Positions 12,454 to 60,200 of a stretch of DNA of 64,000 bases are shown one piece after another. This DNA is from an uncultured Thiotrichales bacterium (GTDB lineage: Bacteria > Pseudomonadota > Gammaproteobacteria > Francisellales > CACEW01), in assembly GCA_903870015.1 (NCBI GenBank), contig CAIQBE010000042.1, forward strand, positions 27,443-91,442, in the 5' to 3' direction. Positions within the stretch are counted from its first letter, which is position 1, and each line of letters begins with the position of its first letter. The translations under genes were made by a program, and so were the position numbers. The notes below the pieces were generated by a model. That model saw only the letters and a program-made list of their open reading frames with translations. It had not been told where the DNA came from and did no database searches.

Positions 12454-12502
12454 CCCTAAATCCATGCGACAATGAAGCCCTCAAATAATCAATTGCAAAA
12501 TT

Positions 12503-13825: not shown

Positions 13826-13844
13826 ACAAAACAGGAGATGATTA

Positions 13845-40200: not shown

Positions 40201-40839
40201 GCCCTGAAATATAATCGCGAATTTGTTTTGGAATTTTTTAATAAAGGCCATTTTTATCTTAAAGAAGTGCGCGGCGAATGGATGCTAGTGTTTAAAGGCG
40301 CGGCCAATACTCGCAAATGGATTCGCGGCACGACCTATTCTCTCGACAATCCAAAAGTCGCAATCTTCAAAACTTATGCGCTGGCACAAGCACCCGAAAG
40401 CATCTTAAGAAAAAGCACTGATTTAGCCAAAGATGCCGCTGCTGACACTCCTATGAATTTTATTCTAGTAGCACCGATTGATGCCGTGCAGTATTTCTTT
40501 TTTGATGATGATCCGCATAAGCAAATGAGCGATCTTTTGGTGAATATTGGGGTGGATTTGATTAATGCAGCAATTGTCGGGATTTTGGTGGCGTTGATTG
40601 GATTTTTTTTCTCGGCCGCTTTTGGAATTGGACTTGGGTTGATTGTTATTCTTGGCGTGCCTGCAGCAGCTCTTGCTGGCTGGATCTTAGAAACCGCTGA
40701 AGAAAATCTCGGCATCAAAGATAAACTGATTGAAATGGGACGCTCAGCTCAAAATCTGTTTTCACATCTCAACGATCAGCTAAAATTTGATTTCCCAGCA
40801 TTTGCAAATACTGCAGCACAAACTTTAACGGCAGCATAA
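37294..40839 (+). CDS. vgrG: evolved VgrG-like spike protein (gp27/gp5-like) with a large C-terminal extension ending in two membrane helices
   Basis: The N-terminus follows the VgrG/Phage_GPD pattern (FDGVLTQVRFSGY...LCIEPAVALY...FNGVSVLDIAKQIL...IRDETMLGFLQRILSYQGLAYYFDY). A gp5 OB-fold signature is present (TRMVQPMHSDDHRSHMTLPTNSEGAMLWSEGFSGEPLLLGTLNN). A Thr/His/Asn-rich beta-helix-like region covers aa ~590-740. The C-terminus has LINAAIVGILVALIGFFFSAAFGIGLGLIVILGVPAAALAGWIL. Confidence 0.8.
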   Translation: MVQHEDIYCDLSLNGMLFDDCELKALKITTALDRPFVVQITLLSHQALRFFQQNIFNPFTLKISGQDFSACYFDGVLTQVRFSGYHCYDLCIEPAVALYRDETYQHLFNGVSVLDIAKQILWGRPFNIPAPMFQAYAIKLMGDRDYPLLYRVLIRDETMLGFLQRILSYQGLAYYFDYSLEKSPLIITDCVNHFAGNIDAAYSPNSPHALTLKPYIETIIYKKLGLPQNVLSSGAPTLQPNNLVAETAEVLKNNAPNTLYHVNTNEQSDRNAKTRADITRLALLSQQHTAKMLGGGLLFAGMTINVHGAWLIRASEIDITFDEHHPERLGSIATTISVQDAAVRYQAMPQFGEHATLMAGIKTGTPGTEMGVNLMSVNEQGHYHATLPSNISSNSEAHGVHIFDTRMVQPMHSDDHRSHMTLPTNSEGAMLWSEGFSGEPLLLGTLNNLSNIHPTTSRNPQNAYWQDNDTNKLAFINHGTYEPYQKTGRKTATILETPCYDLKQNHSYVRMGDKIDHDIAHPAQEAEPGLFLHTSGNYHEQHHGGLLMLLGNLYQDPQKSGFTPVLRHMVQLAQALNAYHILHSVTAHFQSETLTSSGVTETHTQDATTINKTLTATNNFQNYHANTVDNVYVNQQHQTQGDTTSKTFNTHVLNTTSNTTTLTESGDHTTESHDKHTLNLNHLNNQFMTTTQKTTIHTQTTQINTLSQNFSEYSAQVDRLNINSAHTLMTANTAALGGANFYQGDILSIGSDAQAPDTPAMVDLNQNGANAISDEQSTIKKAIVFLLDCPNHSPLLQLCVNHLNPQTIPANNPFIYPLTHEQKRGAITLTTQFKQKAVHYTLHPQIRNINLQYKAPMQQSNPWFTPEGKLPTYMGMRALSSHQGTDFSDADQNIVMLKADSTPPASCLKGGGFHVNSVDNNTIAWLMQQLYKINKHYTYGANNQDQTWQWSPPSTSDYIGLAEKGVTTFALKYNREFVLEFFNKGHFYLKEVRGEWMLVFKGAANTRKWIRGTTYSLDNPKVAIFKTYALAQAPESILRKSTDLAKDAAADTPMNFILVAPIDAVQYFFFDDDPHKQMSDLLVNIGVDLINAAIVGILVALIGFFFSAAFGIGLGLIVILGVPAAALAGWILETAEENLGIKDKLIEMGRSAQNLFSHLNDQLKFDFPAFANTAAQTLTAA

Positions 40840-41835: not shown

Positions 41836-42387
41836 TTAGACTATATTACAGTCATTAGGACCTGGCCGTTTTGGTGGTCCTCCCCGCTGCACTGCTATTG
41901 CTGCCGCCACCGGCAATGCGGTTTCCGGCCTTGACACTGCTGGCTCTGCTCGTGGCAAGACCACTCTTGATGCTGCAGGCCTTTTTTCCAAAGCAAAATG
42001 AATATTTTGCGTAATCAATTCAGCATCCCCTATTATCAGAATCTCTCTAGCCTTTTTTTCTTCAATTTCTGCTGTAACTTTTGCTAAAAGCTCTTCAAGC
42101 ACTGAGAATCCACCCTCTGCATCAATTGCTGCACAGCTTTCGGGAAAGTGAGAAAGATTAGCCATCACTTTTGCTGCCATTAGCTGAACATAAGAATCAT
42201 CTGACCCCAAAACCCTCACGAGCGGTCCAACCACCTTTGCCGCTATGATTGCATGGCAATCAGCCTTACATCCAGAATGATTCAGGAGTTTTCGCACTGC
42301 ATTTTTCTGTTGATCCAAGTCCTCTAAATCCTTTGATATTTTCGAAAAATCCACTGCCTCGGCTATAGCACTTGATCCATCATACAT
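41836..42387 (-). CDS. armadillo/HEAT-repeat-like protein
   Basis: 183 aa. The segment CHAIIAAKVVGPLVRVLGSDDSYVQLMAAKVMANLSHFPESCAAIDAEGGFSVLEELL follows the ARM consensus (aI.eaG.i.pLv.lL.s.d..vq..Aa.alsNl.....c..i...gg...L..lL). The C-terminal tail is Pro/Ala-rich. Confidence 0.6.
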   Translation of the reverse strand: MYDGSSAIAEAVDFSKISKDLEDLDQQKNAVRKLLNHSGCKADCHAIIAAKVVGPLVRVLGSDDSYVQLMAAKVMANLSHFPESCAAIDAEGGFSVLEELLAKVTAEIEEKKAREILIIGDAELITQNIHFALEKRPAASRVVLPRAEPAVSRPETALPVAAAIAVQRGGPPKRPGPNDCNIV

Positions 42388-44775: not shown

Positions 44776-45093
44776 CTACGCAACCGCTTTCAACTCAACC
44801 ACAAAGTGCATGCCATCTTGGTTCAGCGCATCTTGCAATGCCAAGGCAATAAACTGCTCCTCCGAATATCCAAGCTTTTGTGCAAACTCCTTGGCTTTTT
44901 TAGGGCTCAAGCTCTTACGACCACGCTCTAAATCGCACAAGTACTGGTTAGAGATATTCAACTTTTTCGCAAAATCGACTTGATTAACATCATCACTCGT
45001 ACGAATCGCCCAAAGTAAATTAGCAATCGTCAAGGTCTCGCCCGTCATTTTTTCAAGATCTTTGAGCGCTTTGCTCTTTTTTCTAGTAATCAT
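44776..45093 (-). CDS. higA: HigA-like XRE-family antitoxin
   Basis: 105 aa with an HTH_XRE core (VNQVDFAKKLNISNQYLCDLERGRK). It is downstream of, and overlaps by 11 nt, a RelE/HigB-like toxin gene. Confidence 0.75.
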   Translation of the reverse strand: MITRKKSKALKDLEKMTGETLTIANLLWAIRTSDDVNQVDFAKKLNISNQYLCDLERGRKSLSPKKAKEFAQKLGYSEEQFIALALQDALNQDGMHFVVELKAVA

Positions 45094-45364
45094 GCTTGTT
45101 GACCTCTACTATTTTGATCAAATGAATCTCACCGGTTGCAGTAATTTCATATATTGCCCTATAGGCTTTATTCAAACGGATTGATCGCTGTCCCTTCCTA
45201 TTTCCTTTCAATGGCTCATCGTGAAAACTAGGAATTTTTCGGATTTCAAGTAATCCAATCCGCTCAACCATATCAATCCAAACTTGTAACTTCAATTTAA
45301 TTTGATGCGGAACTTTCTCTAAATCCCTCTTTGCTTGTTTGGTCAGCTCTATTTCGCACTTCAT
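45083..45364 (-). CDS. higB: RelE/ParE-superfamily toxin, HigB-like
   Basis: 93 aa. The pattern LTKQAKRDLEKVP...GNRKGQRSIRLNKAYRAIYEI...IHLIKIVEVNKHDY is typical of RelE/HigB toxins. The toxin-first gene order is as in higBA. Confidence 0.75.
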   Translation of the reverse strand: MKCEIELTKQAKRDLEKVPHQIKLKLQVWIDMVERIGLLEIRKIPSFHDEPLKGNRKGQRSIRLNKAYRAIYEITATGEIHLIKIVEVNKHDY

Positions 45365-45904: not shown

Positions 45905-46402
45905 TTACAGCACCTCAAGAATCTTTTTTACGTCAGCATATAGTAAAAATGAGCTACCGCAATATACCCCTGCAAAACTACTTCCAATAGCAACAATCAT
46001 TGCTTTATGTAATGTTTCTTCAGAAAACCCTTGAGCCTCCTCTGCTTTACAATAGGTTGCATCACTCACTACTGTTAGTTTATGCCCCAGATGAAATCCA
46101 GCAACTGCTGTTGCTAACACACATTTACTCGTTCCATATCCGATCACATAAATAGGCTCACTTCTCTTTGTCTCGATGAATACCGTAAAATCTGGATTGG
46201 CGTAACATGAAAAAATATTTTTTTCAAAATACCCCTATCCCGCTCTTGGCTCAAATCCCTCTACAAAGCCTGAAAATTCTGGAGCATCTCGATTAAAAAT
46301 TGGAGCGCCTGGTATATTTCTAAAATGCTGAACATGAATAACATTCCAAGCCTGTAACCTTGCAAGCTCTAATAATTTCTTGGCATTATTTTTTCTCCTA
46401 TA
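45905..46402 (-). pseudogene. isochorismatase/cysteine-hydrolase-family pseudogene (N-terminally truncated, internal TAG)
   Basis: The minus-strand frame reads ...KKLLELARLQAWNVIHVQHF...PRAG*GYFEKNIFSCYANPDFTVFIETKRSEPIYVIGYGTSKCVLATAVAGFHLGHKLTVVSDA. The catalytic Lys and Cys regions are present. There is an in-frame TAG at 46235-46237. The region with the N-terminal Asp motif is absent and no start codon is present. Confidence 0.7.
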
Positions 46403-46469
46403 TTATGATGATTAAAATACGAAAGGGGGGGACATTGTCCGCACCCCAATAAACGGCAAGCGCTTCCGA

Positions 46470-48029
46470 CTATTTTTCTTGCGCAGAACTCGCGGCGCCA
46501 GCTGATTTTAACAACACTAAAATCCAGGCCGTCAAGATAACGCCAATCGCTCCCATCACCCATAAGGTATCATGAAATGCTTTGTCATAACCTACAATGG
46601 CTTGCTGGGTCGCATATTGTTGCTGCGCGGCTAGACTGCCATTCCCAAAAGAACTTAAACTAACATTCACATGTCCTTCGGCAATCGCATTTAACCATGC
46701 GGAAAGATGTTCTGGTCCCACTAGTGATACACCTACTGATGACAAATGGGCGTACAAGGCGGAGGTAAAGACAGCTGCAAAAATGGTGATTGCAATCGCT
46801 TCACTGCCTAAGCGGAATGTATTTAATAATCCTGCTGCCATACCTGATTTTTCTGGCGCAATAATACCTAAGGCAATGCCATCTACCGTACCAAAAGATA
46901 ACCCCATCGCTATTCCGCCTGTTAACATAGGTAGTGCAAGACCTAACAGCGTGGAATCAGGATGAATGGTTTGTAAGGAGAAGATACTAAACAACATAAA
47001 GCCCATTGCAATCGAAATAATGGTTTTTGGTGTTAGCCCCATTTGAATCAATTTAGAGGACAAGAAAGGCAAGACGAAAACAGGTCCCGTTAATAACACA
47101 ATAGCGATACCGGCATCCACAGGACTAAATTGCAAAACACTCATAAAATAGATTGGCAAGTAGAGAATGATCGTAACATAGCAAAACGCCAATACTACGG
47201 GCACCATGGTCATAGCTAAAAATACACGCTCTTTTAAAATTTCTAAATGGAGCATGGGCGCAGAATAACGCTTTTCCCGGTAAACAAATAAGCCAAAAAT
47301 AACAACCACACCTGCTAAAATACCCATAATTGATTGACTAAACCCACCCCATTGCGATGATTGCACAATTGCAAACATCAGAGCAAATAAGCCGACCACA
47401 AATAAACCCGAGCCCAACCAATCAAAGCCAGCATTATGCGTTGGACGTACATGTTTTTCATTGAAAGTGAAACTGAGTGCTGTCACCAATAACAAACCAA
47501 TGGCGTGGGTATAAAATACTGACTGCCAACCAAATAGATGGAGCAAAATGCCCGCCATCGTGGGGCCAAATGCAACGCCTGCGCCTGCAACTGAACCAAA
47601 TAAGGCAAAAGCCCGAGTCAATGCATGGCCAGAAAAATTATTAGAGAGAATCGCAGGGCCACAAGCAAAAACAGCAGCGGCACCAATACCTGCAAACGCC
47701 CGAGCGACATCAAGCATATATCCGCCAGGTGCTAACCCAGATGCAATTGAGGCAACGGCAAACAGTAAGCACCCTGCTGTAAAGGTGCTCGCACGACCAA
47801 ATCGATCCGCTAATGCACCCCATAACAACGTAAAGCTTGCAAAGCATAAGTTAAAGGATGGCGCTACCCACTGCAAAGAGATAATATTAATATTACTCCC
47901 CAGCCCCTGACTAATGGCAGGTAAAATAATCCCTGTCCCAGCAAGGGCCATGGGTACGATAAAAACTGCCAGTAAAATCGTAAATAGCAGCAGGGTCTTC
48001 GATGATGTTTTTTCAGTACTTGCTTTCAT
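46470..48029 (-). CDS. MFS transporter, DHA2 (EmrB/QacA-like, 14-TM) type
   Basis: Start set at ATG 48029 (MKASTEK, AGGAGA RBS). About 14 TM segments. MFS motif A-like GALADRFGR. It is the last gene of the ACP/KAS III operon. Confidence 0.8.
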   Translation of the reverse strand: MKASTEKTSSKTLLLFTILLAVFIVPMALAGTGIILPAISQGLGSNINIISLQWVAPSFNLCFASFTLLWGALADRFGRASTFTAGCLLFAVASIASGLAPGGYMLDVARAFAGIGAAAVFACGPAILSNNFSGHALTRAFALFGSVAGAGVAFGPTMAGILLHLFGWQSVFYTHAIGLLLVTALSFTFNEKHVRPTHNAGFDWLGSGLFVVGLFALMFAIVQSSQWGGFSQSIMGILAGVVVIFGLFVYREKRYSAPMLHLEILKERVFLAMTMVPVVLAFCYVTIILYLPIYFMSVLQFSPVDAGIAIVLLTGPVFVLPFLSSKLIQMGLTPKTIISIAMGFMLFSIFSLQTIHPDSTLLGLALPMLTGGIAMGLSFGTVDGIALGIIAPEKSGMAAGLLNTFRLGSEAIAITIFAAVFTSALYAHLSSVGVSLVGPEHLSAWLNAIAEGHVNVSLSSFGNGSLAAQQQYATQQAIVGYDKAFHDTLWVMGAIGVILTAWILVLLKSAGAASSAQEK

Positions 48030-48085
48030 ATTTGTATCTCTCCTATCAAAAAGGTTAATGTAAAGTTTTATAATTCTCAATTATT

Positions 48086-48820
48086 TTAAAGCCACTCCCG
48101 CTCGCCGTCTCCGTGGGCCAGGCTTGTTCCATAATGGAGTTTTTCCACTCGCTCAATTTCTCTAAATGTTGCCGCAATATCTTCCTGAGCCAGCGCTAGC
48201 GCCTTATCAATGGACATCTGCTTTTCAAACCCATAAAGCTTAACAATTTTCTCTAATCGCTCTTCAATAGACCCTCCAATAATTGTATATTTAATATCAA
48301 GTTCGTTCAAGGTTTTGATAAGCAGCTCATCTGACAGCGCTCTAAATCTTTCAGAAACAGGACGATGCCCATCAGCCACTAAGGGAAACTCAATCGGCAA
48401 ATGAATGAATTCGCTGTAGGTGCTTTTGGCATAATCTCGTGCAATCGCACCAAAATTTACCATCATATCTTCAAAAAATAATACTGAATCTGTTCTTGGA
48501 ATATCAAAGTCCTGCCCTTCTTTAGGATGCATGCCTACACGCACCCGAACCATGCCATAGACCCACTCATGCAAGGCTGAACCATCAGAAACAAAAGTGC
48601 TTAAGTGACTCTCTTTGACAGACCGCTCCATAATGCGCCGTATCGACAAATGCATTAACTCCCCCGGAGAACAGCCTTCAAGTGTTTTGCCAGGCAGTGC
48701 TATGGGCAAGATTTCCCGCATGGTTTTTGCACGTGTTGCGGTAATGCCAACCAAGTGCGACAAGGCCAGTGTTGTTGTCGTTTTCCCACTAGAGTAGGTC
48801 CCTGATATTGCTAATTTCAT
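48086..48820 (-). CDS. P-loop ATPase (AAA_28/NadR-like)
   Basis: 244 aa. Walker A at the extreme N-terminus (ISGTYSSGKTTT). AAGGGA RBS. Confidence 0.65.
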   Translation of the reverse strand: MKLAISGTYSSGKTTTTLALSHLVGITATRAKTMREILPIALPGKTLEGCSPGELMHLSIRRIMERSVKESHLSTFVSDGSALHEWVYGMVRVRVGMHPKEGQDFDIPRTDSVLFFEDMMVNFGAIARDYAKSTYSEFIHLPIEFPLVADGHRPVSERFRALSDELLIKTLNELDIKYTIIGGSIEERLEKIVKLYGFEKQMSIDKALALAQEDIAATFREIERVEKLHYGTSLAHGDGEREWL

Positions 48821-48853
48821 AATGTTTTCCCTTTGTTTGTTAAAAAATAAGTT

Positions 48854-49825
48854 TTAATTAGGCAGCGCATGACCCAGCCCATAAAAAACCCTCATATCAC
48901 CCATAACTCCTTCGATATTGACACACCGCCAAGGAGCTCCCTCTATTAAAATCTGCTCACTTCTTATCACATTTATCGATGCCAATCCCCCATTACTTTT
49001 AGGAGTGTTATCTCTAGAGAAAGTCATCCCTCGCATCCATAATGTAGAACTATTAGCACGTGATATCCCATCTAATAGGTACAAATAACATTGCCCCAAC
49101 TGAGATAGCACTACCATCGCATCAATAGGTGATGCGCCTTGCCCTATTAAGGTCTCCATACCTTGATAGGCTGCACGCTCCGCGAAAGCACTCTCCACCT
49201 TAGCGGTCACTGAAGCGGCATCTAAATCAACATCCACTTCCGTAATGTTATGCGTCACATTCGCAAAACCCGTGCCATAAAAATTATTGGTTGGTTCACC
49301 TAAAATAGTATTGATCGTATCGTAGTGCAGCCCCTCTTTTGGAATGAGGTTTTGATGCTCTCTTAACGTGGGCAATTGCAGCTCGAGCACCACCACCATT
49401 CCACCTATATGACTTTCAAAAGAGACAACCGAACCTTCGGTTGTCAATAAAGTCGTAGTCGCTTTAAAATTCTCTAAATTTTCTAAAGGCTCCTTGCCTG
49501 CTTTCATGGTGAGTGAAACGATAGTGATTGCTTTACGCTTCAATGTCGTAAGCCCGCGTGATATGACACAATAAGCCTCGCTTAATTGCAGGGCAATTAA
49601 TGCTGCATCCACACTACTCAGATGCACTTTTTGATGGGTACTGCCCTTAGTCGACCAATTTTCAGGAATAGCCACACAACACATCGCCTCTGCTCCTGAT
49701 GCAGTTATCATTATTTCTTTGATTGTTCGCACGGCACGTTTATACCCATTAGAAAAAAAACGTGTACTCTTGTCCCCTAAAAAGTCATCAATATTCGCAA
49801 ATTTTGTACGCATCATAGTCCTCAT
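48854..49825 (-). CDS. hypothetical protein of the ACP/KAS III operon
   Basis: 323-aa ORF starting 6 nt after the KAS III gene. No motif I can name. Confidence 0.55.
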   Translation of the reverse strand: MRTMMRTKFANIDDFLGDKSTRFFSNGYKRAVRTIKEIMITASGAEAMCCVAIPENWSTKGSTHQKVHLSSVDAALIALQLSEAYCVISRGLTTLKRKAITIVSLTMKAGKEPLENLENFKATTTLLTTEGSVVSFESHIGGMVVVLELQLPTLREHQNLIPKEGLHYDTINTILGEPTNNFYGTGFANVTHNITEVDVDLDAASVTAKVESAFAERAAYQGMETLIGQGASPIDAMVVLSQLGQCYLYLLDGISRANSSTLWMRGMTFSRDNTPKSNGGLASINVIRSEQILIEGAPWRCVNIEGVMGDMRVFYGLGHALPN

Positions 49826-49831
49826 TAAAAG

Positions 49832-50824
49832 TTATATTTCAGTCACGCCCATTAATCGAGTCTCGCTCAAATTCATTGCCATACTGCCCCACGACAATCC
49901 CACACCAAATCCAGAGAGCACCACTTGCTCTTTGGTTTTGGCTGTAAAACTTTCGCGCTCATGGCATAAAGCCAAGGGAATAGAGGCGGGCCCCGTATTA
50001 CCATAATGCTTGACCGTAATCGGTACCTGCTCTTTACTAAGCGCTAATTTTTTACGTAAATAGTCGAGGATAAACTGATTGGCCTGGTGTAATGCAAAAA
50101 TACCCACTTCCTCTTTAGCCCAACCCATTTGCGCAAGCACGGAATTAATAGATAGAGGGACTTCACGTAAGGCAAACTCCATAATTTCAGAGCCATTCAT
50201 GTGCAGATAAGCATCTCCACCCTCTTTGGTTTTATCAATCATGAGGTGTTGAAAACCCGTGCCATCGGTCATGATATTAAAAGCGATATCATGGGTGCCT
50301 TGCTCTACAATGGTTGCCGCACCCCCATCACCAAATACTAACCGTACCTTTTGATCATCAGGATTAAGGTATTGGCTAATGGTATCGCCTACACAGATCA
50401 GCACCCGCTTGCAGCTGCCCGAATTAATCAATAGTGAAGCTTGATATAACCCATAAATATACCCAGAGCATCCATAATTAATATCAAGAGCAATGGCTGT
50501 TTTTGGGAGCTGCAACTTACCTTGTAAAATACAGCTTGTGGCCGGCATTTTATAATCGGGTGTTTGTGATACAAAAATAATGGCATCGACGGATTCAGGA
50601 GCTATTGCTAATGCTGCCATCAAATTTCGCGCCGCCTCTAGACAAAAATCAGATGCCTTTTGATGCGGTAAGGCAATGCCCACAGATTCAATACCCGTGC
50701 TCATCATGACCCGTTTAATTTCATTTAGACCAAACTTATCTTCAAGCGTTGTTAGATCTAATTTATTTTTAGGTATCACGGCAGAGATGCCTTTAATCGC
50801 CAAATTTTTGAGCCTAATGTTCAT
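49832..50824 (-). CDS. beta-ketoacyl-ACP synthase III (FabH-like)
   Basis: 330 aa. Cys-His-Asn triad contexts: NYGCSGYIYGL, ALHQANQFIL, HYGNTGPASIP. Confidence 0.88.
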   Translation of the reverse strand: MNIRLKNLAIKGISAVIPKNKLDLTTLEDKFGLNEIKRVMMSTGIESVGIALPHQKASDFCLEAARNLMAALAIAPESVDAIIFVSQTPDYKMPATSCILQGKLQLPKTAIALDINYGCSGYIYGLYQASLLINSGSCKRVLICVGDTISQYLNPDDQKVRLVFGDGGAATIVEQGTHDIAFNIMTDGTGFQHLMIDKTKEGGDAYLHMNGSEIMEFALREVPLSINSVLAQMGWAKEEVGIFALHQANQFILDYLRKKLALSKEQVPITVKHYGNTGPASIPLALCHERESFTAKTKEQVVLSGFGVGLSWGSMAMNLSETRLMGVTEI

Positions 50825-51072
50825 CCGTTCAGTCCTTTGGTTGCTAATCTCTGCTTAATGAGGTCAAAAATATCGCCTACTGTTTTACATTGTTCTACCT
50901 CAATTCCCTTCACCATGACTTGATAGTGACGATCAATCACTGCAATCGTTGAAACGATGGAAAGTGAGTCCCAGAGCTGCGCACCCTCAAGTAGAAACCC
51001 ATCCGTTAAGGTGTCAACCTTCACTGCTAACAGCTTTGCTAATTCTTGTAAATATTGTTGCTTTTCCATCAT
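50821..51072 (-). CDS. acyl carrier protein
   Basis: 83 aa with a phosphopantetheine attachment motif (WDSLSIVS). 4-nt overlap with the KAS III gene. Confidence 0.8.
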   Translation of the reverse strand: MMEKQQYLQELAKLLAVKVDTLTDGFLLEGAQLWDSLSIVSTIAVIDRHYQVMVKGIEVEQCKTVGDIFDLIKQRLATKGLNG

Positions 51073-51089
51073 ATACTCCCCTGTTTTAT

Positions 51090-52427
51090 TTATAGATTTC
51101 TCATTTTTTTAAAGCGCTGACCATGAAACGTGTGTTCAACAAATTCTATCTTTTGCGGAATCTTGTATGCGGGTAATTGCGTTCTACAAAAAAATATCAG
51201 CTTGGTTTTAAATTCTCCCGGATCAAAACCGCTTTTTACTCTTACTTTTACCGCAACGATATTTCCTAAAATGGCGTTGGGCTCACCGCTTACGACAGCA
51301 TCTTCAATGCCTTCCATTTTTAATAGCACATTTTCAATCTCACCGGGGTAGACTTTTTCTCCTCCGACATTGATAACATCACTTTTTCGGCCTAAAATTT
51401 TAATGTAGCCATCTTGCTCCATGACCATGTCACCGGTTTTAAACCAACCGTCTTCGGTATAGGGCGATGGCGCATTTAAATAGCCGAGCATGCCATTTTC
51501 CAACTTCACTTCTAACATTCCATCGTTGATCCGCACGCGCTCAGGATCCTCATCTAACTTGATAAATAAAGAATCTGATGCTTTTGATTTAGCCTTTAAA
51601 ACACCGATTTCTGAAAGACCATAAGCCTGAAAAAATCTAACCTCTGGGAAAGCAGCATTTAATCGATGCAGTAATGATTCTGGCATCGGCTCACTGCCAT
51701 AATTAACAATTTTCAATGAATGTAAGTCATACTTTTCATGTGCCTGACTTAATAACAATAAGTTTAAAAATGAGGGCGAGGTCACTAACACCTCAACTTT
51801 TTCCGCCTCAACTACCTTCGCAACTGCATCGGTTTCTCGTACCTCGGGAATAATGAGCGTCCCACCACTAAATAAATTACACAATATGGTATTAAAGCCC
51901 CCGATATGATCAAAGAGTAAAAAAGAAATCGTTCTAAATGCTGTTTTCTTTTCGCGAAAGTTCATGAGCAAGTTATTAAAATCATGGATGATGGCTTTGC
52001 TTTTGCCACTCGATCCCGATGACATGATGATTAGGCCCGGATGATTCTCTTTTCTTAAGCGCATGACTAAATCATGTTGGAGCCGATACTGTAGTGGCTC
52101 AATGGCAAATTGTGCATCATGAAAAGTAACGACATATTCTATGCCCACGATGGCCTGATACTCCTGCTGTTTTGCGGGAACTACATTGGTCATCGGCACA
52201 ATGATGCAGTTAGTATTGGCTAAAGCAAACAACATCGCTACCGAATAAGGTGAAAAATCAGCATTGATTTGGACAATAGCACCGGATGAGATCCCCTGAT
52301 TTTGTAGTGTTGCTTCATACTCAGCTATTTTTTTGCTAAGCCACGCATAAGAAAAGTGCTCTCCCTGGCTCACAATCGCCGTTTTATCAAATTGTTGAAA
52401 TCCTGCGATGAAAGTTTGCACGTTCAT
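51090..52427 (-). CDS. AMP-dependent synthetase/ligase (probably carrier-protein-loading)
   Basis: 445 aa with adenylate-forming motifs IIMSSGSSGKSKAI, YGLSE, FKTGD and a C-terminal GEKVYPGEIE. It is flanked by ACP genes. Confidence 0.85.
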   Translation of the reverse strand: MNVQTFIAGFQQFDKTAIVSQGEHFSYAWLSKKIAEYEATLQNQGISSGAIVQINADFSPYSVAMLFALANTNCIIVPMTNVVPAKQQEYQAIVGIEYVVTFHDAQFAIEPLQYRLQHDLVMRLRKENHPGLIIMSSGSSGKSKAIIHDFNNLLMNFREKKTAFRTISFLLFDHIGGFNTILCNLFSGGTLIIPEVRETDAVAKVVEAEKVEVLVTSPSFLNLLLLSQAHEKYDLHSLKIVNYGSEPMPESLLHRLNAAFPEVRFFQAYGLSEIGVLKAKSKASDSLFIKLDEDPERVRINDGMLEVKLENGMLGYLNAPSPYTEDGWFKTGDMVMEQDGYIKILGRKSDVINVGGEKVYPGEIENVLLKMEGIEDAVVSGEPNAILGNIVAVKVRVKSGFDPGEFKTKLIFFCRTQLPAYKIPQKIEFVEHTFHGQRFKKMRNL

Positions 52428-53128
52428 GAAACTCCTCCCAAATAAATATTTTGACCTGTGACAAAATCACTTTCTTTTTTGATGTAAAAATCAATTGTGT
52501 TGGCCACATCCTCAAAAGTTCCCATTCTTGGGATAGCCTGCCGGCTAATTAATCTCGACATTTTCTCTTTTGGGACCGAACGAATTAAATCCGTTTCAAT
52601 GGGCGTCGGACCGATGGCATTTACGGTAATTCCTAGGGCAGCTAATTCACGCGCCATGACTTCAGTCAAGGATTTAATCCCTGCTTTTGATGCCGCATAA
52701 ATAGCTTCACCCTCTAGCTTTAATGGCGTTGCGACCGTCGTGAAATTGATGATGCGGCCATAACGATGCTTTGACATTAGTTTTGAGGCTTCTCGGCAAA
52801 ACAAAAATGTACCCACAACATTCGTTCCTAAAATGTCATTTACCGTCGATAGTGGTGTGAGCGCGATATGATTCATCGATGCAATGCCCGCATTATTGAT
52901 AAGATTGTCTAATCGCCCATGGGTCTTACGAATATATGAAAAAATTTTCTTCACGGCAGATTCATCGGTCACATCGGCAATGAAATGTTGATATCCGACA
53001 AGCGACCAATCAATATCAGAGCGACTGCAACCAATCACAATGTGCCCTTGCCTCACATAATGCTCGACGAGATAGCGACCAATGCCTTTGCGTGTACCAG
53101 TAATGAGTGTGATGGGCTTCTTAGTCAT
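52424..53128 (-). CDS. short-chain dehydrogenase/reductase (FabG-like)
   Basis: Start at ATG 53128 (MTKKPITLITG). TGxxxGIG cofactor motif (TGTRKGIG), NNAG, and catalytic YAASKAG. Confidence 0.88.
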   Translation of the reverse strand: MTKKPITLITGTRKGIGRYLVEHYVRQGHIVIGCSRSDIDWSLVGYQHFIADVTDESAVKKIFSYIRKTHGRLDNLINNAGIASMNHIALTPLSTVNDILGTNVVGTFLFCREASKLMSKHRYGRIINFTTVATPLKLEGEAIYAASKAGIKSLTEVMARELAALGITVNAIGPTPIETDLIRSVPKEKMSRLISRQAIPRMGTFEDVANTIDFYIKKESDFVTGQNIYLGGVS

Positions 53129-53426
53129 GATGATTGCCCTCAACTAGCGTTTGCAAATAGCTGGATAATGTACCTATGGTTAAGAAGGGGCTATTACGTT
53201 GTGACATGGCTTTTTCATTGGCAAGAATGATCGACACCCCAAACTGATCCTCAATTTTTTGCTCAACATTCACAATCAGTGAAACTAATGAGATAGAATC
53301 TAATACCCCGTGTTTACCATAGATGGGGGCATCACCTCCAAACTCTGTATTTATTGGCGTGTCTAAGGTTTGGTTTAACTCATTAATTGCGTCGATGACG
53401 ACTTGACTATACTCATTGGCTAACAT
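53121..53426 (-). CDS. acyl carrier protein
   Basis: 101 aa with a phosphopantetheine attachment motif (GVLDSISLVS). It is the first gene of the operon. Confidence 0.8.
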   Translation of the reverse strand: MLANEYSQVVIDAINELNQTLDTPINTEFGGDAPIYGKHGVLDSISLVSLIVNVEQKIEDQFGVSIILANEKAMSQRNSPFLTIGTLSSYLQTLVEGNHHD

Positions 53427-53702
53427 GTTTTACGCTCCTTATTATCCTGTTTGTTGTGCGGCAATTTTTTTCTTTGTTTCTTGGTCACTTTTACTCTCCA
53501 GTTGATTATTTTTGGGTTATTGGCCGATTGTCGTCATGATTTTCTCCTGTTTAAAATTAAAGGCTACAGTTAATTATGAGTAAAATATACGAAACAAACG
53601 TGACCATGTCAAGCATTATTTGCATATTATATTCAAATCAATGAGGCAAGCTTGATATTTTGAAACTTTAATGAGATAATTGGGGCACATAAATGCCGAT
53701 AA

Positions 53703-54380
53703 ATGATTATCTTGAACTTAAAAAAATGGACCACTAGTGAAATTTTAAAAAATTTCATGTTTAAGAAAAATCTCAAATCAGCTGAGTTGGCTCGTCTGAC
53801 CGGCCTTCCCCAACCTACTGTCCATCGTATTGTTGAGGGAGATAGCATCCGACCCCATAGAGACTCCTTAGAGGCCCTGGCAAAATTCTTTAATATTACC
53901 GTTCCACAACTCCAAGGCATTGACCCTATTGAAGAACTAGAGGTTACAGTTGCAAACCCCATGCCAGAGGGCTGGCGAAAAATTCCAGTCTATAACTGGG
54001 ATAATGTAGTTAGCTTTGCTAAATCAAATAAAAGTGAAATCCAAACAGGTCGCGCTGAAACCCTTACTAATGCCGACGTTAATGATGCAGGCTTTCTTAT
54101 TGAGCTTACTGATGAATCGATGTACCCACAGTTTCCCGCAGGAACCGAAATCATTGTAAATACTGAATATGAGCCCATGGATCGTGAAATGGTTGTTGTA
54201 TATTTAAAACACCTTGATAAAGCATTTTTCAGAATGATATTATTTAATGGTGCTGAGCGCTTTGTGCGCCCGCTGAACCCTGATCTTATGCCCATTGGTG
54301 TCGTAAAACTTAACTTAGAGGAAGATATTGTTGTTGGCGTTTTTATTGAAGAGCGAAAAAAATCAAGACGTAGTGTATAA
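53703..54380 (+). CDS. XRE-HTH / S24 peptidase-fold repressor (LexA/CI-like)
   Basis: N-terminal HTH (LKSAELARLTGLPQPTVHRIVEG). The C-terminal S24-like fold has DESMYP (Ser region) and ...RPLNPD. The expected Ala-Gly site and catalytic Lys appear substituted. Confidence 0.75.
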   Translation: MIILNLKKWTTSEILKNFMFKKNLKSAELARLTGLPQPTVHRIVEGDSIRPHRDSLEALAKFFNITVPQLQGIDPIEELEVTVANPMPEGWRKIPVYNWDNVVSFAKSNKSEIQTGRAETLTNADVNDAGFLIELTDESMYPQFPAGTEIIVNTEYEPMDREMVVVYLKHLDKAFFRMILFNGAERFVRPLNPDLMPIGVVKLNLEEDIVVGVFIEERKKSRRSV

Positions 54381-54413
54381 TTATTGCAAATAGAAAGACC
54401 GGAGTTCTTACAT

Positions 54414-54902
54414 ATGAAAGATTCAAAAAAAATAAGTGATTACATCAAATGGATGATTGAAGCCTATGCAGAATTACGTGCTGAACAAGCAACGCATGTT
54501 ACTCACCGCGTTGTAGAATCTCATAAAAATGAAAAAGGCGAACATCAAGTTTCAGTTCAAATCACTGGAAAAAGCCTTGTATTTAAAGCATCACCCAAAG
54601 AAATTATGGCCGACGATAACTTATTAGAATCTTTTTCTCGAAAAGATATTCGCTTGCTCACCTACCTTGCCTGCGAGGATATCAAGGAACCCACCCATGA
54701 AATACTAGAGCAAAAATTTATTCGTAATATGAACAAATTTTTCTTTAAACTCAAGCACGGCAAGACCGGCGAAGAAATGGAAAAATCTGCCGAGGAAATT
54801 TCAACCAACCCTGAACTGATTAAATCCCTCAGTCCTGAAGATGCCCATAAGATTGGCTATGTTACTGCAAACCAAATGATCAAGAGCGAAAGCAAAGCAT
54901 GA
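54414..54902 (+). CDS. hypothetical protein
   Basis: 162 aa from ATG 54414 (GGAG RBS). Charged and soluble, with no recognised domain. Its stop overlaps the start of the YhhQ-like gene (ATGA). Confidence 0.5.
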   Translation: MKDSKKISDYIKWMIEAYAELRAEQATHVTHRVVESHKNEKGEHQVSVQITGKSLVFKASPKEIMADDNLLESFSRKDIRLLTYLACEDIKEPTHEILEQKFIRNMNKFFFKLKHGKTGEEMEKSAEEISTNPELIKSLSPEDAHKIGYVTANQMIKSESKA

Positions 54903-55597
54903 TCTCCAAAAAAAATGTGGCTTCTAACACATTTCTCGTCCTTGCAATGCTTTTTCTGGCCCTCATTCTTCTTACCCACACATTTGCAAATAAAGAGTTA
55001 CTCTACCCCCTGGGAGGAATTAGCTCCCCTGGGATGTTGACTTTTCCGCTTGCCTTTATGGTTTTAGATATTATTGCAGAGATCTATGGCTTTCACACCG
55101 CCAAACAAGTTATTTGGGCTACACTTGCAATCAGTGGATTTTTCTTTTTTGCCGGCGCTATGATGGCCTACTTCCCTGACCCAAACAATATTCCCAATTT
55201 GATTCCTGGACAATACTACCAAGCTATTTTTGGAATCTTACCCAGAGTTTATATCGCAACCTTCATTGGCATGCTCCTAGGCTCTACAGTGAATGCAAAA
55301 CTCCTTTCAAAATGGAGAATATTACTAAAAGGTAAATATTTTTGGGCAAGAAGCTTAGGCGCATCTGCAATAGGCGATTTCATCTTTATCTTTGTTGGAA
55401 CTTTTTTAATCTGCCTGGAACGATTTCCATTTTACATAATCTTAAAGTTTTCCCTTACCGCGTACCTCATTGAAATTTGTGCACTCATTATTCTTGCCCC
55501 ATTTGCCAGCATTGTTACCTCCCTAATAAAACTGATACTGAGAGATAAAGCTAGCTCTTTACAGATTGAGTACAACCCTTTCAGTCTTGAAAACTAA
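54899..55597 (+). CDS. YhhQ/VUT-family (queuosine-precursor-type) transporter, paralog A
   Basis: 232 aa with about 6 TM segments. The signature region FPLAFMVLDIIAEIYGFHTAKQVIW resembles YhhQ (DUF165/Vut_1). Confidence 0.7.
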   Translation: MISKKNVASNTFLVLAMLFLALILLTHTFANKELLYPLGGISSPGMLTFPLAFMVLDIIAEIYGFHTAKQVIWATLAISGFFFFAGAMMAYFPDPNNIPNLIPGQYYQAIFGILPRVYIATFIGMLLGSTVNAKLLSKWRILLKGKYFWARSLGASAIGDFIFIFVGTFLICLERFPFYIILKFSLTAYLIEICALIILAPFASIVTSLIKLILRDKASSLQIEYNPFSLEN

Positions 55598-56280
55598 GCT
55601 TTTTGTAAAAAAGGATTGGCAATTTCCTCAGATGCAATAACTCGTGTGCAATCTGTTTTTTTCAGAACAAAAACTACGATATTTGCAGGAAATGACAATA
55701 AGATATTGATAGTGGCTTTCAAAGCAATACCCCAAAAAATCATGGAAACAAGTTCGCCTTGAAATGTAGTCCCATATAGCATAATGGCGAACCCTAAACT
55801 GGTAAAAATAATCTCTCCAATCATCGATGCACCAATACTTCTTAACCAAAAATAGCGTCCTTTCAGCAACACCTTCCACTTTGTCACCAAGCGGATATTT
55901 AAAAAGCCTCCGATAAAAAAACCCACAAAAGTTGCCAAAAATAACTTCAACAATGGCCCAAAAATCATTTCATAATCAGACTCACCGTGCCACGTTAAGG
56001 GCGAAGGAAAATGAATTAAAAGCACTAAAATCAAGGCCACAATAAAATCGACTACCAACATGCAATAAAACATGTTTTTTGCCGCCTTATAACCATATAA
56101 CTCTGCAATGATATCACTTAAGATAAACCAAAATGGCGAGATAAAAGATCCTGCCGATGCCACACTATGACCCATTGAAATAGGCTTATACACAAGCAAT
56201 TCTGCACACAACCCAAGAGCAACATATAACATACTAAAAAACACTAAACACCTAAATTGATTGTCTTTGATCATCACCAA
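55594..56280 (-). CDS. YhhQ/VUT-family transporter, paralog B
   Basis: 228 aa with the same signature (SPFWFILSDIIAELYGYKAAKNMFY). Convergent with paralog A, with a 4-nt overlap. Confidence 0.7.
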   Translation of the reverse strand: MVMIKDNQFRCLVFFSMLYVALGLCAELLVYKPISMGHSVASAGSFISPFWFILSDIIAELYGYKAAKNMFYCMLVVDFIVALILVLLIHFPSPLTWHGESDYEMIFGPLLKLFLATFVGFFIGGFLNIRLVTKWKVLLKGRYFWLRSIGASMIGEIIFTSLGFAIMLYGTTFQGELVSMIFWGIALKATINILLSFPANIVVFVLKKTDCTRVIASEEIANPFLQKA

Positions 56281-56354: not shown

Positions 56355-57278
56355 ATGTCTCATGGCCCCGAGGCCCCTCAGTACCTGCACTCTTATGGTG
56401 ACGCAACCGACCTTGGTGAACTTGAGGTCGAACGGTTACGACTACTTAACACTGCCTATAGCCCAACGGCACATGCGATGCTTGCGCCTCATTTAAAGCC
56501 AGGAATGGAAGTATTAGAGCTAGGTGTGGGGACAGGTGAAATTGGTAGCTGGTTAGCCGAAAAGGTTGGTGCAGAGGGTAAATACATTGCCATAGATAAA
56601 GATCCGCAACAACTAGCAAAAGCAGCGCGCCTCATTCATGGCTCTCAAGTGCACCTTATTGCTGCAGATGCTCTACGCCTCAGCGATTCCGCAGAATTTT
56701 CTGCCCAGCGACCTGCAGAAGGCTTTAATCTTGTCTATTGTCGCTGGTTCCTCTGCCACATTACAGAAGCCCAACGCACAAAATTAATTCAACATATTAT
56801 GTCACTGCTCGCTCCCAACGGTGTATTTATCTGTGAAGAGCCTGACTATCGAAATATGCGCCTGAAGGAAAGAGGCGCCATAACCCCTAGCCCAGCGATA
56901 GATAGCTGGAAAGATATTGTTAAAGGCTTGCAAGCAAAGCCTAGCTTAGGCCTTGATTTAGAAATGGATGATAGCAAATTGACGGCTGAATTACAGAAAG
57001 CCATTTTAGGGCATGCCGGTTATCATGCTGAAATTATCTGTCGGTTTGAGGCCGAATTAACTAATGGCCAGAAACATGCTTTGGTTCTAGGAATACAAAC
57101 TGCTGCCAAAGCAATTCTTTCTCTTGGAAAAGCACCAGCAGATGTTGATACTTTGTTGTCCCAACTTCGAATCATAGAGAGCAATCCCGATCAAAGTGTT
57201 GTATTTTATACTAATACTTTTGCCAAACTAACGAGATCGGTAGACTCGATGACTGCAGCACTCCCCTTACCTACCTAA
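56355..57278 (+). CDS. class I SAM-dependent methyltransferase
   Basis: 307 aa with motif I VLELGVGTGEIG and an acidic post-I residue (AIDKD). Its 3' end overlaps the NRPS 3' end by 12 nt, convergently. Confidence 0.8.
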   Translation: MSHGPEAPQYLHSYGDATDLGELEVERLRLLNTAYSPTAHAMLAPHLKPGMEVLELGVGTGEIGSWLAEKVGAEGKYIAIDKDPQQLAKAARLIHGSQVHLIAADALRLSDSAEFSAQRPAEGFNLVYCRWFLCHITEAQRTKLIQHIMSLLAPNGVFICEEPDYRNMRLKERGAITPSPAIDSWKDIVKGLQAKPSLGLDLEMDDSKLTAELQKAILGHAGYHAEIICRFEAELTNGQKHALVLGIQTAAKAILSLGKAPADVDTLLSQLRIIESNPDQSVVFYTNTFAKLTRSVDSMTAALPLPT

Positions 57279-60200
57279 GGTAGCTTCGTGTAAAAACTTA
57301 GCTTGTTCAGCAATACTATGCCGAGATAGTAGATCAGACATTTTTATGACATACCCAAGTTCGATTATTTTACTGAACAGCCTAATATAAAGCATAGAAT
57401 CTCCACCCAAATCAAAAAAACTATCTGTGGGCTGGATTTCATCGATCCCCAGTAGCTCATGCCATATATCCATTAATTTCGCCTGAATCTCTACGTGATT
57501 GGCACTGACTATAGATTGGCTTGGCAATAATACCTCAGAAAGTACCGGTTGATCGACTAAAGATGAAATAGCTACGTCAGCATCTGCCTCTATGACCTGA
57601 TTAATATCTAACAACATCGGTACAAAATTTTCTTGTCGACTCACACAACAAAGAAACTGTTCAGGTCGCCCAGGGTGAAGCACCATAAAAGCCTGTAAAC
57701 CCATTTTTTGTATTTCATCATGTAGCACCGTGAGATCGCCCCCCTCCTCCATGCTATAGAGCCGTGTATTTGTCAGACCGGTAATAATCAAACTGCCTTG
57801 GACAAAAGGAAGCTGCGACATAAGCCACTCCCTTAATTGACTTAATGAGCTCCATTGTGCCCCTTTAAATACAATAGGGGGCCCTCGATCCGCTTCAACC
57901 TTATTGGCTTTTGGCAATACATGCAAGGTTGCAGTATATCTAAAATCTCGTAACTCATTACTAAAATGCATTAGTTTCGGTTCAAAGAGTGGCACCAGAC
58001 TGAACGATGCTTTTTGAATAATTTGCATAATAAACCGAGGGCTCACAAACAATTCTTTTTCAAGCAAATGGTAATCATTTAATTGCTTGCAATCATTCAC
58101 GCCCTGCGCACATTTGGCTTGCCGTACATACTCATAAAAACAACCTTGCCAGTCTGCGTGCCGCAAGTCACCCAAAATAATTCGCCCTCCCTGAGGGTTC
58201 AGCAAAGCAATTGCTTGCTCCAATACTAATTCAAAATATTCAAGACTCGGAAAATATTGCACCACAGAATTCAGTATAATAGTGTCAAATGTCCCGGGTA
58301 GAATATTAAGTTCATCTGCGGCTAATACCTTAAACTGCGTGTCTTTATCTTGATACGTCGAGGCCAGTTTTTCGATCACCGCTGCTGAAAGATCAACTCC
58401 TAAATATTGGATATATTTTTTTTCCAAGGCCTTCATCACCTGACCTGTACCGCAACCAACTTCAAGCACACGCCCCAATGGCTCCCTTTTTATTTTTGCA
58501 GCAATATCATGCAGCCAATCCTGCATGACCTCAGATGAAAATGGGTGACCATCTACACTATTATTCCACCCCAACCAGGGCTGCATATTCAGATCTGAAA
58601 CCCCATGATATAAATCATCATAAATTGCGCTCCAGTACGCCAGAACTCCTTCATTTTTTTGATTTTGAGCTGAGCTTAGAGACAACAAGACCCTTTCAAA
58701 TGCATTGACAAGCCCAGAGGCATTTTCCCTAGAAAATACGTCCTGAGAGAAAATAAATGTTAAATCTGCCTCATCCTCTGACCACGCTACCTGCAGTTCT
58801 AGATCAAAACGAGCCATTCCATAATCAAGCTGCACCGCCTGAAAGCCCCTCCCATCTTCTGCCCCCCGATCAAAGGCATTAAATACAAACTGTGACAGCG
58901 GCTGAGCATCGGTTAAAAGAGTTGCCCCTACTGCTGATGCAATCTTTGCGAAAGGGATATCACGATACTCCAAGATCATAGTGCTTTTTCTTTTGATTTC
59001 GGCAATCCAATGTTCGGGACTCCACCTATCTGTTTTATGGCGTTGTAGTGCCAGCACTCCAAAATTAATAAATAGTCCTATACAATCCTGCTCTTCTTCT
59101 CCACGCAAAGAAATGGGCAATGCAATTTGCAAATGATCTTCATTGATAAAAGCAAAAAGCACTTTTGCAAAGGCGGCAAGCAAAACTGTATTTGCTGTTG
59201 CAGAAGACTGGGCAGCAAGCTTTTTGAGCGCTACCAATAAGTCTTTATTTAAATGCAATCTTTGCTGAAACCCCTTAAAGGAACGCACCAATGGGGGTTG
59301 TAACGATGAGCGCAAAGTATTTTTTAAACGCTGCAACCCCATTACCTCAATATAATTTTTAACACTTTTCGGATCCACCTCATCATCTACTGCATTTTTT
59401 ACATATTCGAGATAGCTCTTAGGAGCCGATGGAAGTACTCCATGTCTCAACCAATGCTTGAGACGACTTAATAAATTGAGCAAACTGCGCCCATCTGTAA
59501 TAATATGATGCAATACAAGCTGCACATACAGCGAATCAGAAAACGAATGAACTACTACCCTTAGCAAAGGAGGCTCTGTTAAATTGAAAGGAGGGTCAAT
59601 AAACTCTCTCAGGGCACCTAAGAATAAGGCATCATTTGCAATATTTTCCGGCGCCGAATGAGCATATTTTTTTAGCTGAACATGAGGCATTTCCGCCCCC
59701 ACTTTCTGCACAACGCCATGGTTTTCTTCAAAAAACCCAATCCTGAAAAAAGGCTCATTTTTCAGAATTAAATCTAATCCCTGAACCACACTCTCATCAG
59801 AGGTCGGCCATAAAACCTGATATAAAAATGCATCATGATAACATACCGCCTCTGGGAAAAACCGGCTAAATACCCAAATCCCCTTTTGCATGGCAGACAG
59901 AGGAAGGGGCTCTTTATCTAAATTTATCTGCTGCGTAGACTCAACTTCTGGTCGCTCGGTAATAGCTTTTTCTCGAATAATATGTAGCAAATCATCAAAC
60001 CACGGCTGATTTAAAAACTGGGTCAAGGATACTTTAACCCCCAATACCTCATTAACTTTACTGAGCAATTCAATTGCTCGCAAAGAGTGCCCACCATTTT
60101 CAAAAAACGACAAACTCAAATCGATTTGCTCACGCCGTAGAACCTTACACCATATTAATAAAATTTTTTGCACCAAAGGATCTCCTTGATCTGGTTGATG

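Follow-up and report, generated by a model that had tools for sequence, protein, structure and literature searches.

A candidate AvrD/MmyD-type acyl-butenolide operon in an uncultured gammaproteobacterium

To our knowledge, the products of AvrD-family proteins fall into three classes in all, every one of them bioactive, and the syringolides are elicitors of plant defence. AfsA, the enzyme of A-factor and methylenomycin furan (MMF) biosynthesis, condenses a beta-ketoacyl-acyl carrier protein (ACP) with a phosphorylated keto-sugar, dihydroxyacetone phosphate (DHAP), and the resulting butenolide phosphate is then handled by a phosphatase. Syringolides are formed in Escherichia coli by avrD alone (PMC3879358). 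In the methylenomycin pathway of Streptomyces coelicolor SCP1, all methylenomycin-related metabolites were lost upon deletion of mmyD, MmyC and MmyA were proposed to supply the acetoacetyl-ACP that is condensed with a pentulose, and MmyX and MmyK were listed as putative kinases (Table S1) and MmyP as a phosphatase, roles which the authors describe as putative (PMC12593393). Sphydrofuran is made by a cluster with an AvrD-family protein, a ketoacyl-ACP synthase III (KAS III) and an ACP, and its region is typed as "furan" by antiSMASH 5 and later versions (PMC11195616). Here, an operon of eight co-directional minus-strand open reading frames (ORFs) at positions 46470-53426 of a 64,000-nucleotide stretch from an uncultured Thiotrichales bacterium (contig CAIQBE010000042.1; the whole stretch is called the window) was compared with these systems. 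We estimate a probability of roughly 70% that this operon makes an AvrD/MmyD-type acyl-butenolide (syringolide-, sphydrofuran- or methylenomycin-precursor-like) by means of three modules. The earlier note on this DNA could not match the genes to a named pathway; the match is now provided by the AvrD-like protein, the MmyX-like kinase, the KAS III and the ACP, which together form the core of the AvrD/MmyD butenolide clusters of methylenomycin, sphydrofuran and syringolide chemistry.

The gene at 48854-49813 (319 aa; the ORF reaches 49825) encodes the predicted butenolide synthase, a member of the AvrD/MmyD family. Its product had been described as a 323-aa protein with no recognisable motif, but it is a full-length AvrD-family protein: PF05655 was matched with 194.7 bits against a cut-off of 25 (E 3.6e-57), and the alignment covers residues 9-322 of the protein and positions 3-331 of the 331 in the model. 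Over 98% of its length, the protein is 27-28% identical to the AvrD proteins of Pseudomonas syringae and 31.6% identical to MmyD. When it was aligned with members from Pseudomonas, Streptomyces, Bacillus, Streptococcus and Staphylococcus, all of the 23 family-invariant residues were found to be kept, including W53, S54, K56, H64, S66, D69, D248, R252, S255, T257 and R296. The earlier note had suggested a structure prediction for this protein, with hotdog, cyclase or thioesterase folds in mind, and the AlphaFold2 (AF2) model did show a double hotdog fold, with a predicted local distance difference test score (pLDDT) of 82.5. The nearest solved folds were those of TesB-type thioesterases and polyketide synthase (PKS) dehydratases, all of which are enzymes that handle acyl thioesters, and the modelled fold is compatible with the conversion of a beta-ketoacyl thioester and a pentulose to a butenolide. 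No solved structure was found for the AvrD family, as a sequence search of the PDB with the AvrD-like protein returned nothing usable.

The AvrD family is of limited size: a search of 1.84 billion cluster representatives gave 618 of them at E ≤ 0.001, and the clade of the window forms a single 50%-identity cluster, the next relative being 37% identical. Few proteins are closely related to the AvrD-like protein (51-69% identity), and all of these stem from metagenomes and metagenome-assembled genomes (MAGs) of uncultured bacteria; where labels were given, they named Gammaproteobacteria and one Neisseriaceae. Only a handful of members of this clade were present in species-representative genomes and JGI metagenomes, and proteins identical to those of the window occur only in metagenome assemblies.

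The gene next to that of the AvrD-like protein (48086-48820) encodes a protein with an AAA_28 domain (PF13521), which is predicted to be an MmyX-like P-loop small-molecule kinase. It is 57% identical to MmyX and 38% identical to the paralogue MmyK. Since the AF2 model (pLDDT 86.5) was closest to the folds of the NadR ribosylnicotinamide kinase domain, deoxynucleoside kinases and thymidylate/shikimate kinases, we predict a small-molecule kinase and not an AAA+ machine; it had first been described as a P-loop ATPase. A sequence search of the PDB with the kinase gave nothing usable. The genes of the kinase and of AvrD were adjacent or close to each other in nine of ten AvrD loci from species-representative genomes, and in Ralstonia PSI07, as on a Bacillus plasmid, the two are direct neighbours. 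Among 32 plasmid records with an AvrD homologue, the 15 non-Pseudomonas records corresponded to the 15 carriers of the kinase, as matched by genus counts. Across phyla the kinase is 55-63% identical, AvrD only 22-32%, and this stronger conservation suggests that the kinase acts on an invariant, sugar-derived part of the chemistry.

The other six genes would serve acyl supply and export. Carrier-like protein 1 (53121-53426, 101 aa, with an AAGGAG ribosome-binding site and the sequence LDSISLVSLI) comes first and is followed by a FabG-like oxidoreductase of the short-chain dehydrogenase/reductase (SDR) type (52424-53128, 234 aa from its ATG; the ORF reaches a TTG at 53143), a short adenylate-forming ligase of 445 aa (51090-52427), acyl carrier protein 2 (ACP2; 50821-51072, 83 aa, with a weak PP-binding match) and a FabH-type KAS III with both FabH domains (49832-50824). 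A DHA2-like efflux transporter of the major facilitator superfamily (MFS; 46470-48029, 519 aa; the ORF reaches 48080) is encoded last, after the kinase. Both carrier motifs reported earlier, DSIS in carrier 1 and DSLS in ACP2, are present. The orthologue profile of ACP2 matched solved ACPs (E 4e-7); of the two proteins taken for ACPs, it is the first that is weakly supported as a carrier. The Asp43-Ser44 pair of carrier 1 is invariant in all five orthologues and the protein is always encoded directly upstream of the SDR-ligase pair across loci, and we consider it a probable phosphopantetheine carrier that is loaded by the ligase.

The SDR (adh_short, E 2e-41) and the ligase (AMP-binding and AMP-binding_C domains) were both as first described. 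The SDR scored 159 bits with TIGR01830 (E 1e-46), which is below the cut-off of that model. For the ligase, the closest solved relatives were fatty-acyl/feruloyl-CoA synthetases, and the family of such enzymes of about 447 aa is very large, with more than 6000 matches. The Cys-His-Asn triad of the KAS III is intact, as had been stated, with Cys119, His246 and Asn276 aligned to the catalytic triad region of Staphylococcus aureus FabH (1zow). A loose resemblance to the DarB/StlD systems had also been proposed, and this was not upheld: the KAS III scored 24 bits with NF005293 (cut-off 450) and 20 bits with NF053539 (cut-off 550), the StlD/DarB models, versus 244 bits with the generic FabH model. 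Its identity is 31% to MmyC and 68.5% to the KAS III of a cassette linked to AfsA, which is described below. The KAS III, the SDR and the ACPs were all under the NCBIfam cut-offs for FabH, FabG and AcpP, and no fabD, fabF/B or fabZ/A was found among the operon genes by domain search, in agreement with the view that this is not the housekeeping fab cluster. For the transporter, MFS_1 was matched with E 3e-35, which bears out the MFS assignment, and about 14 hydrophobic segments were counted in a crude hydropathy scan. The DHA2 type (14 transmembrane segments) is less firm, the protein being close to the EmrB/DHA2 subfamily with 151 bits against a cut-off of 230 for TIGR00711 over nearly the full length. 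The proposal of a dedicated pathway for an exported small molecule is supported, and likewise the proposal that the ligase-carrier pair probably feeds the KAS III.

The tight packing of the eight genes on one strand was borne out by the ORFs, by the junctions and by an order that is kept in diverged loci. ATG starts were chosen for the SDR (53128), the AvrD-like protein (49813) and the MFS transporter (48029) on the basis of orthologue lengths and of gene calls on identical metagenome contigs. The ORFs given earlier do exist; for the SDR, the 323-aa protein and the transporter, the longest possible ORF had been given, which probably exceeds the gene by 5, 4 and 17 codons, respectively. With the chosen starts, the junctions in gene order are -8, -4, +17, -4, +18, +33 and +56 nt, the 4-nt overlaps being those of the ligase gene with the SDR gene and of the ACP2 gene with the KAS III gene. 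A purine-rich sequence resembling a Shine-Dalgarno site precedes every start (8/8 genes). About 160 nt upstream of the first start codon there is a candidate sigma-70-like promoter on the minus strand (53584-53612, TTGACA-17-TATATT), which is the best site of the region with 11 of 12 matches; as the count of such sites in the region was not above that of shuffled sequence, it stands as a consensus match only. A riboswitch or attenuator in the 5' leader (53427-53610) was considered and rejected: short inverted repeats are present there, but the RNA fold gave z = +1.03 against shuffled sequence. No RNA genes were detected in the window by Rfam (at gathering thresholds) or ARAGORN. The GC content of the operon equals that of the rest of the window, and the window is chromosomal; MetRS, RecJ, DnaG, TopA, DprA and TolB are also encoded on it.

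At comparison loci with enough sequence, the order carrier 1, SDR, ligase, ACP2, KAS III, AvrD, kinase, MFS was kept in L001/L002, L003/L006, L004 and L005, and the same eight-gene order was present in at least five diverged metagenomic lineages, with protein identities of 47-86%. The outer flanks otherwise differ between loci, which argues for selection on the operon as a unit and against ORFs lined up by chance. The MFS protein is 78-82% identical in L001/L002 and L004 and belongs to a different MFS lineage in L003 and L005.

Judged from these loci, three units are fused in the operon, and each of them also exists separately. The third module (AvrD-kinase-MFS) occurs alone in Firmicutes. The first and second together (carrier 1-SDR-ligase, then ACP2-KAS III) were found at 55-81% identity in locus L026, which has no AvrD, and there the SDR is 81% identical to that of the window. 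The first alone, a carrier-SDR-ligase trio with neither ACP2 nor KAS III, occurs in polysaccharide-type loci with identities of 44% for the carrier, 67% for the SDR (in L027) and 49% for the ligase. Because the trio occurs without a KAS III, the SDR is tied to the ligase and carrier 1, upstream of the KAS III, rather than to the butenolide. Overlaps lie within the first module (-8, -4) and the second (-4) and positive gaps lie between modules; such a pattern of translational coupling fits the module boundaries.

In L026, the five-gene cassette, an AfsA-domain gene, a flavin monooxygenase gene and an MFS gene form one co-directional run, and an HAD (haloacid dehalogenase) gene of the MmyP-like kind precedes the cassette. 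We take L026 to be a probable cluster for a gamma-butyrolactone or butenolide, here in a Gram-negative organism. The strongest argument for the output of the cassette comes from here: the same five genes serve AfsA in one locus and AvrD in another, so that the output would be a beta-ketoacyl-ACP. The locus (L026 1073-10627) belongs to another metagenomic bacterium and adjoins tig-clpP-clpX; the genes ahead of its cassette are those of the AfsA-domain protein, the flavin monooxygenase, the MFS protein, an Acyl_transf_3 protein, an alpha/beta hydrolase and the HAD. A further version of the five-gene supply cassette was seen from gene calls on a metagenome contig, where it is followed by an aldo-keto reductase gene and adjoins CsrA and conjugative-transfer genes (TraG/TraD-like, DtrJ-like, DUF2859). 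An integrative conjugative element may carry this version.

Compared with the methylenomycin cluster, the window has adjacent homologues of MmyD, MmyX and MmyC (31.6%, 57% and 31% identity) together with ACP2 and an MFS exporter, and the logic of a dedicated beta-ketoacyl-ACP that is condensed with a pentulose is the same (PMC12593393). The gene order of this adjacent core differs, however: the mmy core is MmyD-MmyX-MmyC-MmyA (plus MmyP and Mmr), so that the MmyX gene stands between that of the AvrD-family protein and that of the KAS III. The operon and its immediate neighbours are also without the families of the enzymes that form the cyclopentanone and tailor it, which are the Old Yellow Enzyme (OYE) MmyE, MmyO/F, MmyG, MmyQ, MmyY and MmyT, the operon has no second kinase corresponding to MmyK and the window has no MmyP phosphatase, whereas a ligase, a second carrier and an SDR are added upstream of the KAS III and the genes belong to an uncultured gammaproteobacterium. 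With neither the tailoring set nor the phosphatase, the operon is not a methylenomycin cluster. With the P. syringae AvrD proteins, the AvrD-like protein has in common the Pfam family, a full-length alignment and all the invariant residues. They differ in identity, which is only 27-28%, and in setting: P. syringae avrD draws on beta-ketoacyl thioesters of the host, no gene for a KAS III, ACP, ligase or MmyX-type kinase is linked to it, and its operon partners are unrelated (a histidine phosphatase, dioxygenases, a sulfotransferase and an aminotransferase). An "AAA family ATPase" which ends the P. syringae avrD operon was examined as a possible MmyX-type kinase and proved not to be homologous.

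The sphydrofuran cluster (GI-9) of Streptomyces ambofaciens resembles the operon in its combination of AvrD-family protein, KAS III, ACP and MFS protein; by its published gene list, it lacks an AAA_28 kinase, a ligase and a second carrier, and its tailoring enzymes are others (PMC11195616). AfsA-type clusters have an analogous chemistry, and in L026 the five-gene cassette of the window stands next to AfsA and an MmyP-like HAD. On the other hand, no PF03756 match was obtained among the operon proteins, tblastn with the AfsA of L026 found nothing in the window, and no gene for a TetR-type receptor is present. A profile comparison of the AvrD alignment with the AfsA of L026 showed no relation (probability 0.1%), and the AvrD/AfsA parallel is drawn because of the chemistry and the common supply cassette, not because of homology.

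The Firmicute cassette has an AvrD-family protein, an MmyX-type kinase (58-63% identity) and an MFS protein in the same order as the operon. Unlike the operon, it has no dedicated acyl supply genes and adds an OYE flavoprotein and an HxlR regulator. In Streptococcus sobrinus (L023 7053-11150) and Staphylococcus caprae (L024 7058-11131), the genes stand in the order AvrD-kinase-OYE-MFS beside an HxlR-type regulator gene, and the same set with the MFS gene first is carried by a Bacillus plasmid (L016 7127-11879). Homologues of AvrD and the kinase are also found on Lactobacillus and Lactiplantibacillus plasmids, and some of the Firmicute copies of this cassette are split into fragments. No description of the AvrD-kinase-OYE-MFS cassette was found in the literature searched.

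On this basis, a route to an acyl-butenolide can be proposed for the operon. The gene content, protein families, predicted folds and cross-locus conservation behind it come from the present analysis and the AvrD/MmyD reaction from published work on homologues; what we infer is which acid and which sugar are used, when and on what the SDR and the kinase act, and what the final product is. The ligase would adenylate a carboxylic acid, probably aliphatic or hydroxy-aliphatic, and load it onto carrier 1, where the FabG-like SDR would adjust the oxidation state of the tethered acyl group. The KAS III would then condense this acyl primer with malonyl-ACP2, presumably loaded by the housekeeping FabD, to give a beta-ketoacyl-ACP2, in parallel to the formation of acetoacetyl-MmyA by MmyC and MmyA. 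With the AvrD-like enzyme, a pentulose (either xylulose or ribulose, and possibly in phosphorylated form) may receive the beta-ketoacyl group on one of its hydroxyls, and an intramolecular Knoevenagel condensation would lead to a 2-acyl-butenolide; this reaction has been proposed for AvrD and MmyD, with genetic support from the avrD and mmyD experiments cited above. The MmyX-like kinase could phosphorylate a hydroxyl, either on the sugar itself or on the side chain derived from it, and the product would be exported by the DHA2-type MFS pump. If this is right, the operon works like early methylenomycin and sphydrofuran biosynthesis.

Several points weigh against this assignment. Between the AvrD-like protein and those family members that have been studied, the identity is only 27-32%. 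AvrD of P. syringae works without a kinase, and by analogy the kinase would be dispensable for the condensation itself. An MmyP-like HAD is found nowhere in the 64-kb window, while L003, L005 and L026 have one, and its absence would mean that phosphate handling differs or uses a host enzyme. Neither a phosphopantetheinyl transferase nor a malonyl transferase is encoded near the operon. Carrier 1 is weakly recognisable, as PP-binding (PF00550) was matched with E 0.03 in two of five orthologues and DltC with E 0.0026. Finally, the SDR could have another substrate, either what the KAS III makes or the completed butenolide. In L004, a phosphopantetheinyl transferase gene lies immediately after the MFS gene. 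In the loci with an MmyP-like HAD, the gene (30-36% identity to MmyP) is located directly upstream of carrier 1, at 5680-6372 in L003, 2618-3316 in L005 and 6320-6994 in L026. For carrier 1, the PDB gave no match by sequence and the orthologue profile found no ACP there.

The earlier note had placed a ketoreduction after the condensation, and in its full form this would mean that the SDR reduces the beta-keto group to a 3-hydroxyacyl-ACP, that the AvrD-like protein is an acyltransferase or thioesterase only, and that the product is a hydroxy fatty acid or an acyl-sugar ester. The FabG-like character of the SDR (TIGR01830, E 1e-46), the TesB-type thioesterases and PKS dehydratases as nearest folds of the AvrD-like model and the lack of an MmyP-like phosphatase in the window would all agree with it. 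We nevertheless consider it unlikely. The SDR (67-81% identity) is found together with the ligase and carrier 1 also where both KAS III and AvrD are missing, its identity there being 67%, which argues that its substrate is independent of the KAS III; the same cassette serves AfsA, which needs a beta-ketoacyl-ACP; and all family-invariant AvrD residues are retained. Since loss of the beta-keto group would remove the very function that AvrD/AfsA chemistry needs, a late ketoreduction is left unsupported. The carrier-SDR-ligase trio is commonest in loci of another kind, and by analogy with these the operon might serve acylation of a cell-surface structure or polysaccharide. Trios of 44-67% identity do stand among glycosyltransferase, DegT, epimerase, deacetylase and acyltransferase genes in L027, L029 and L030 (DegT aminotransferase, epimerase, deacetylase and acyltransferase as neighbours, with the glycosyltransferase in L027). 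Here, however, no glycosyltransferase, sugar-nucleotide enzyme or N-acyltransferase is encoded in the operon or its flanks, and the trio is joined to KAS III, AvrD, kinase and efflux pump in an arrangement that is kept in all sister loci, so that such a role is highly improbable. A search of the literature for a carrier-SDR-ligase route to 3-hydroxybutanoyl sugars gave nothing relevant.

A supply of lipid starter to a neighbouring nonribosomal peptide synthetase (NRPS) had also been suggested. The NRPS (57267-63974, minus strand, 2235 aa) has two condensation stretches, an adenylation domain, two carrier domains and a methyltransferase domain, and the genes from carrier 1 to KAS III might provide it with an acyl or hydroxyacyl starter, the whole region being one lipopeptide cluster. 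A second Condensation stretch exists beyond that at residues 1357-1773 and may precede the adenylation domain, which starts at residue 421; in L001/L002, moreover, an NRPS, a KS-carrier (ketosynthase-carrier) gene and a methyltransferase gene lie directly upstream on the same strand. But no NRPS was seen within about 10 kb in the sister loci L003/L006 and L004, nor in those parts of L005 that were examined, while AvrD and the kinase are kept in all of them. The NRPSs of the window and of L001 are 27% identical with different architectures, and orthology of the two was rejected on this ground. Between the NRPS and the operon of the window there are five unrelated genes, which lie on both strands, and AvrD, kinase and MFS would be left unexplained. 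We regard the link as very unlikely, and production of an acyl-butenolide by the operon itself as the preferred reading. In the adenylation domain of the window NRPS, the core is followed by a luciferase-like monooxygenase, and a separate methyltransferase gene (56355-57278, plus strand) abuts the NRPS gene.

New in comparison with the described clusters are the front end for acid activation, to which a second carrier and an SDR belong, a host range of only uncultured Gammaproteobacteria-type MAGs, and the modular picture with its link between AvrD and an MmyX-type kinase and a cassette common to an AfsA locus. The distinct architecture, with its own acid-activation front end in uncultured bacteria, points to new chemistry. 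Testable roles also follow from the comparison: MmyX as a conserved kinase partner of MmyD, and the widespread carrier-SDR-ligase trio as an acid-activation and redox module. Only tentatively, and with more doubt than confidence, we would go further and suppose that this clade, in uncultured Gammaproteobacteria that may be host-associated, makes a butenolide or furan not seen before, which might be a diffusible signal or an antibiotic; that AvrD and the MmyX-type kinase form a near-universal core outside Pseudomonas, with the kinase acting on the sugar-derived part; that the supply cassette plugs into either AvrD or AfsA; and that the regulator pair beside the operon may exert control.

This regulator (53703-54380, plus strand) is divergent from the operon and combines a Cro/CI-type helix-turn-helix (HTH) with Peptidase_S24, which makes it a candidate cluster regulator. 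It is paired with a 172-aa protein (54384-54902, plus strand) for which no Pfam or NCBIfam match was obtained. Homologues of the regulator lie at most 7 kb from the cluster in L003/L006, L004 and L005, in varied positions and orientations, and homologues of the 172-aa protein (33-42% identity) are encoded beside them in L003/L006 and L005; in L004, the partner position is taken by a 187-aa gene not detected as a homologue. The regulator and partner are located at 13447-14103 and 12911-13444 in L003, at 10669-11331 and 10140-10667 in L005, and at 11971-12603 and 12549-13112 in L004. The two could regulate the cluster, or they could be one module of a genomic island that these lineages share.

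Just downstream of the MFS gene, two short ORFs on the minus strand (45905-46147 and 46369-46563) together look like what is left of one disrupted gene. The first matches the C-terminal part of an isochorismatase domain, and the fragment is also present on identical metagenome contigs. A ParE/HigB-type toxin with an HTH antitoxin (44776-45364, minus strand), an armadillo-repeat protein (41836-42387, minus strand) and a VgrG-like (Phage_GPD) protein of 1181 aa (37294-40839, plus strand) are encoded further on, and their presence by the operon suggests an accessory, interaction-related region of the chromosome. A stand-alone AMP-binding enzyme of 714 aa, the N-terminal 240 aa or so of which are without a family match, is encoded at 17970-20114 on the plus strand. 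Genes of Vut_1 transporters (YhhQ-like, PF02592) stand beside the operon in four lineages, at 4716-5411 in L003, 13130-14143 in L004 and 1487-2182 in L005; in the window there are two of them (54899-55597, plus strand, and 55594-56280, minus strand), which are convergent paralogues with a 4-nt overlap.

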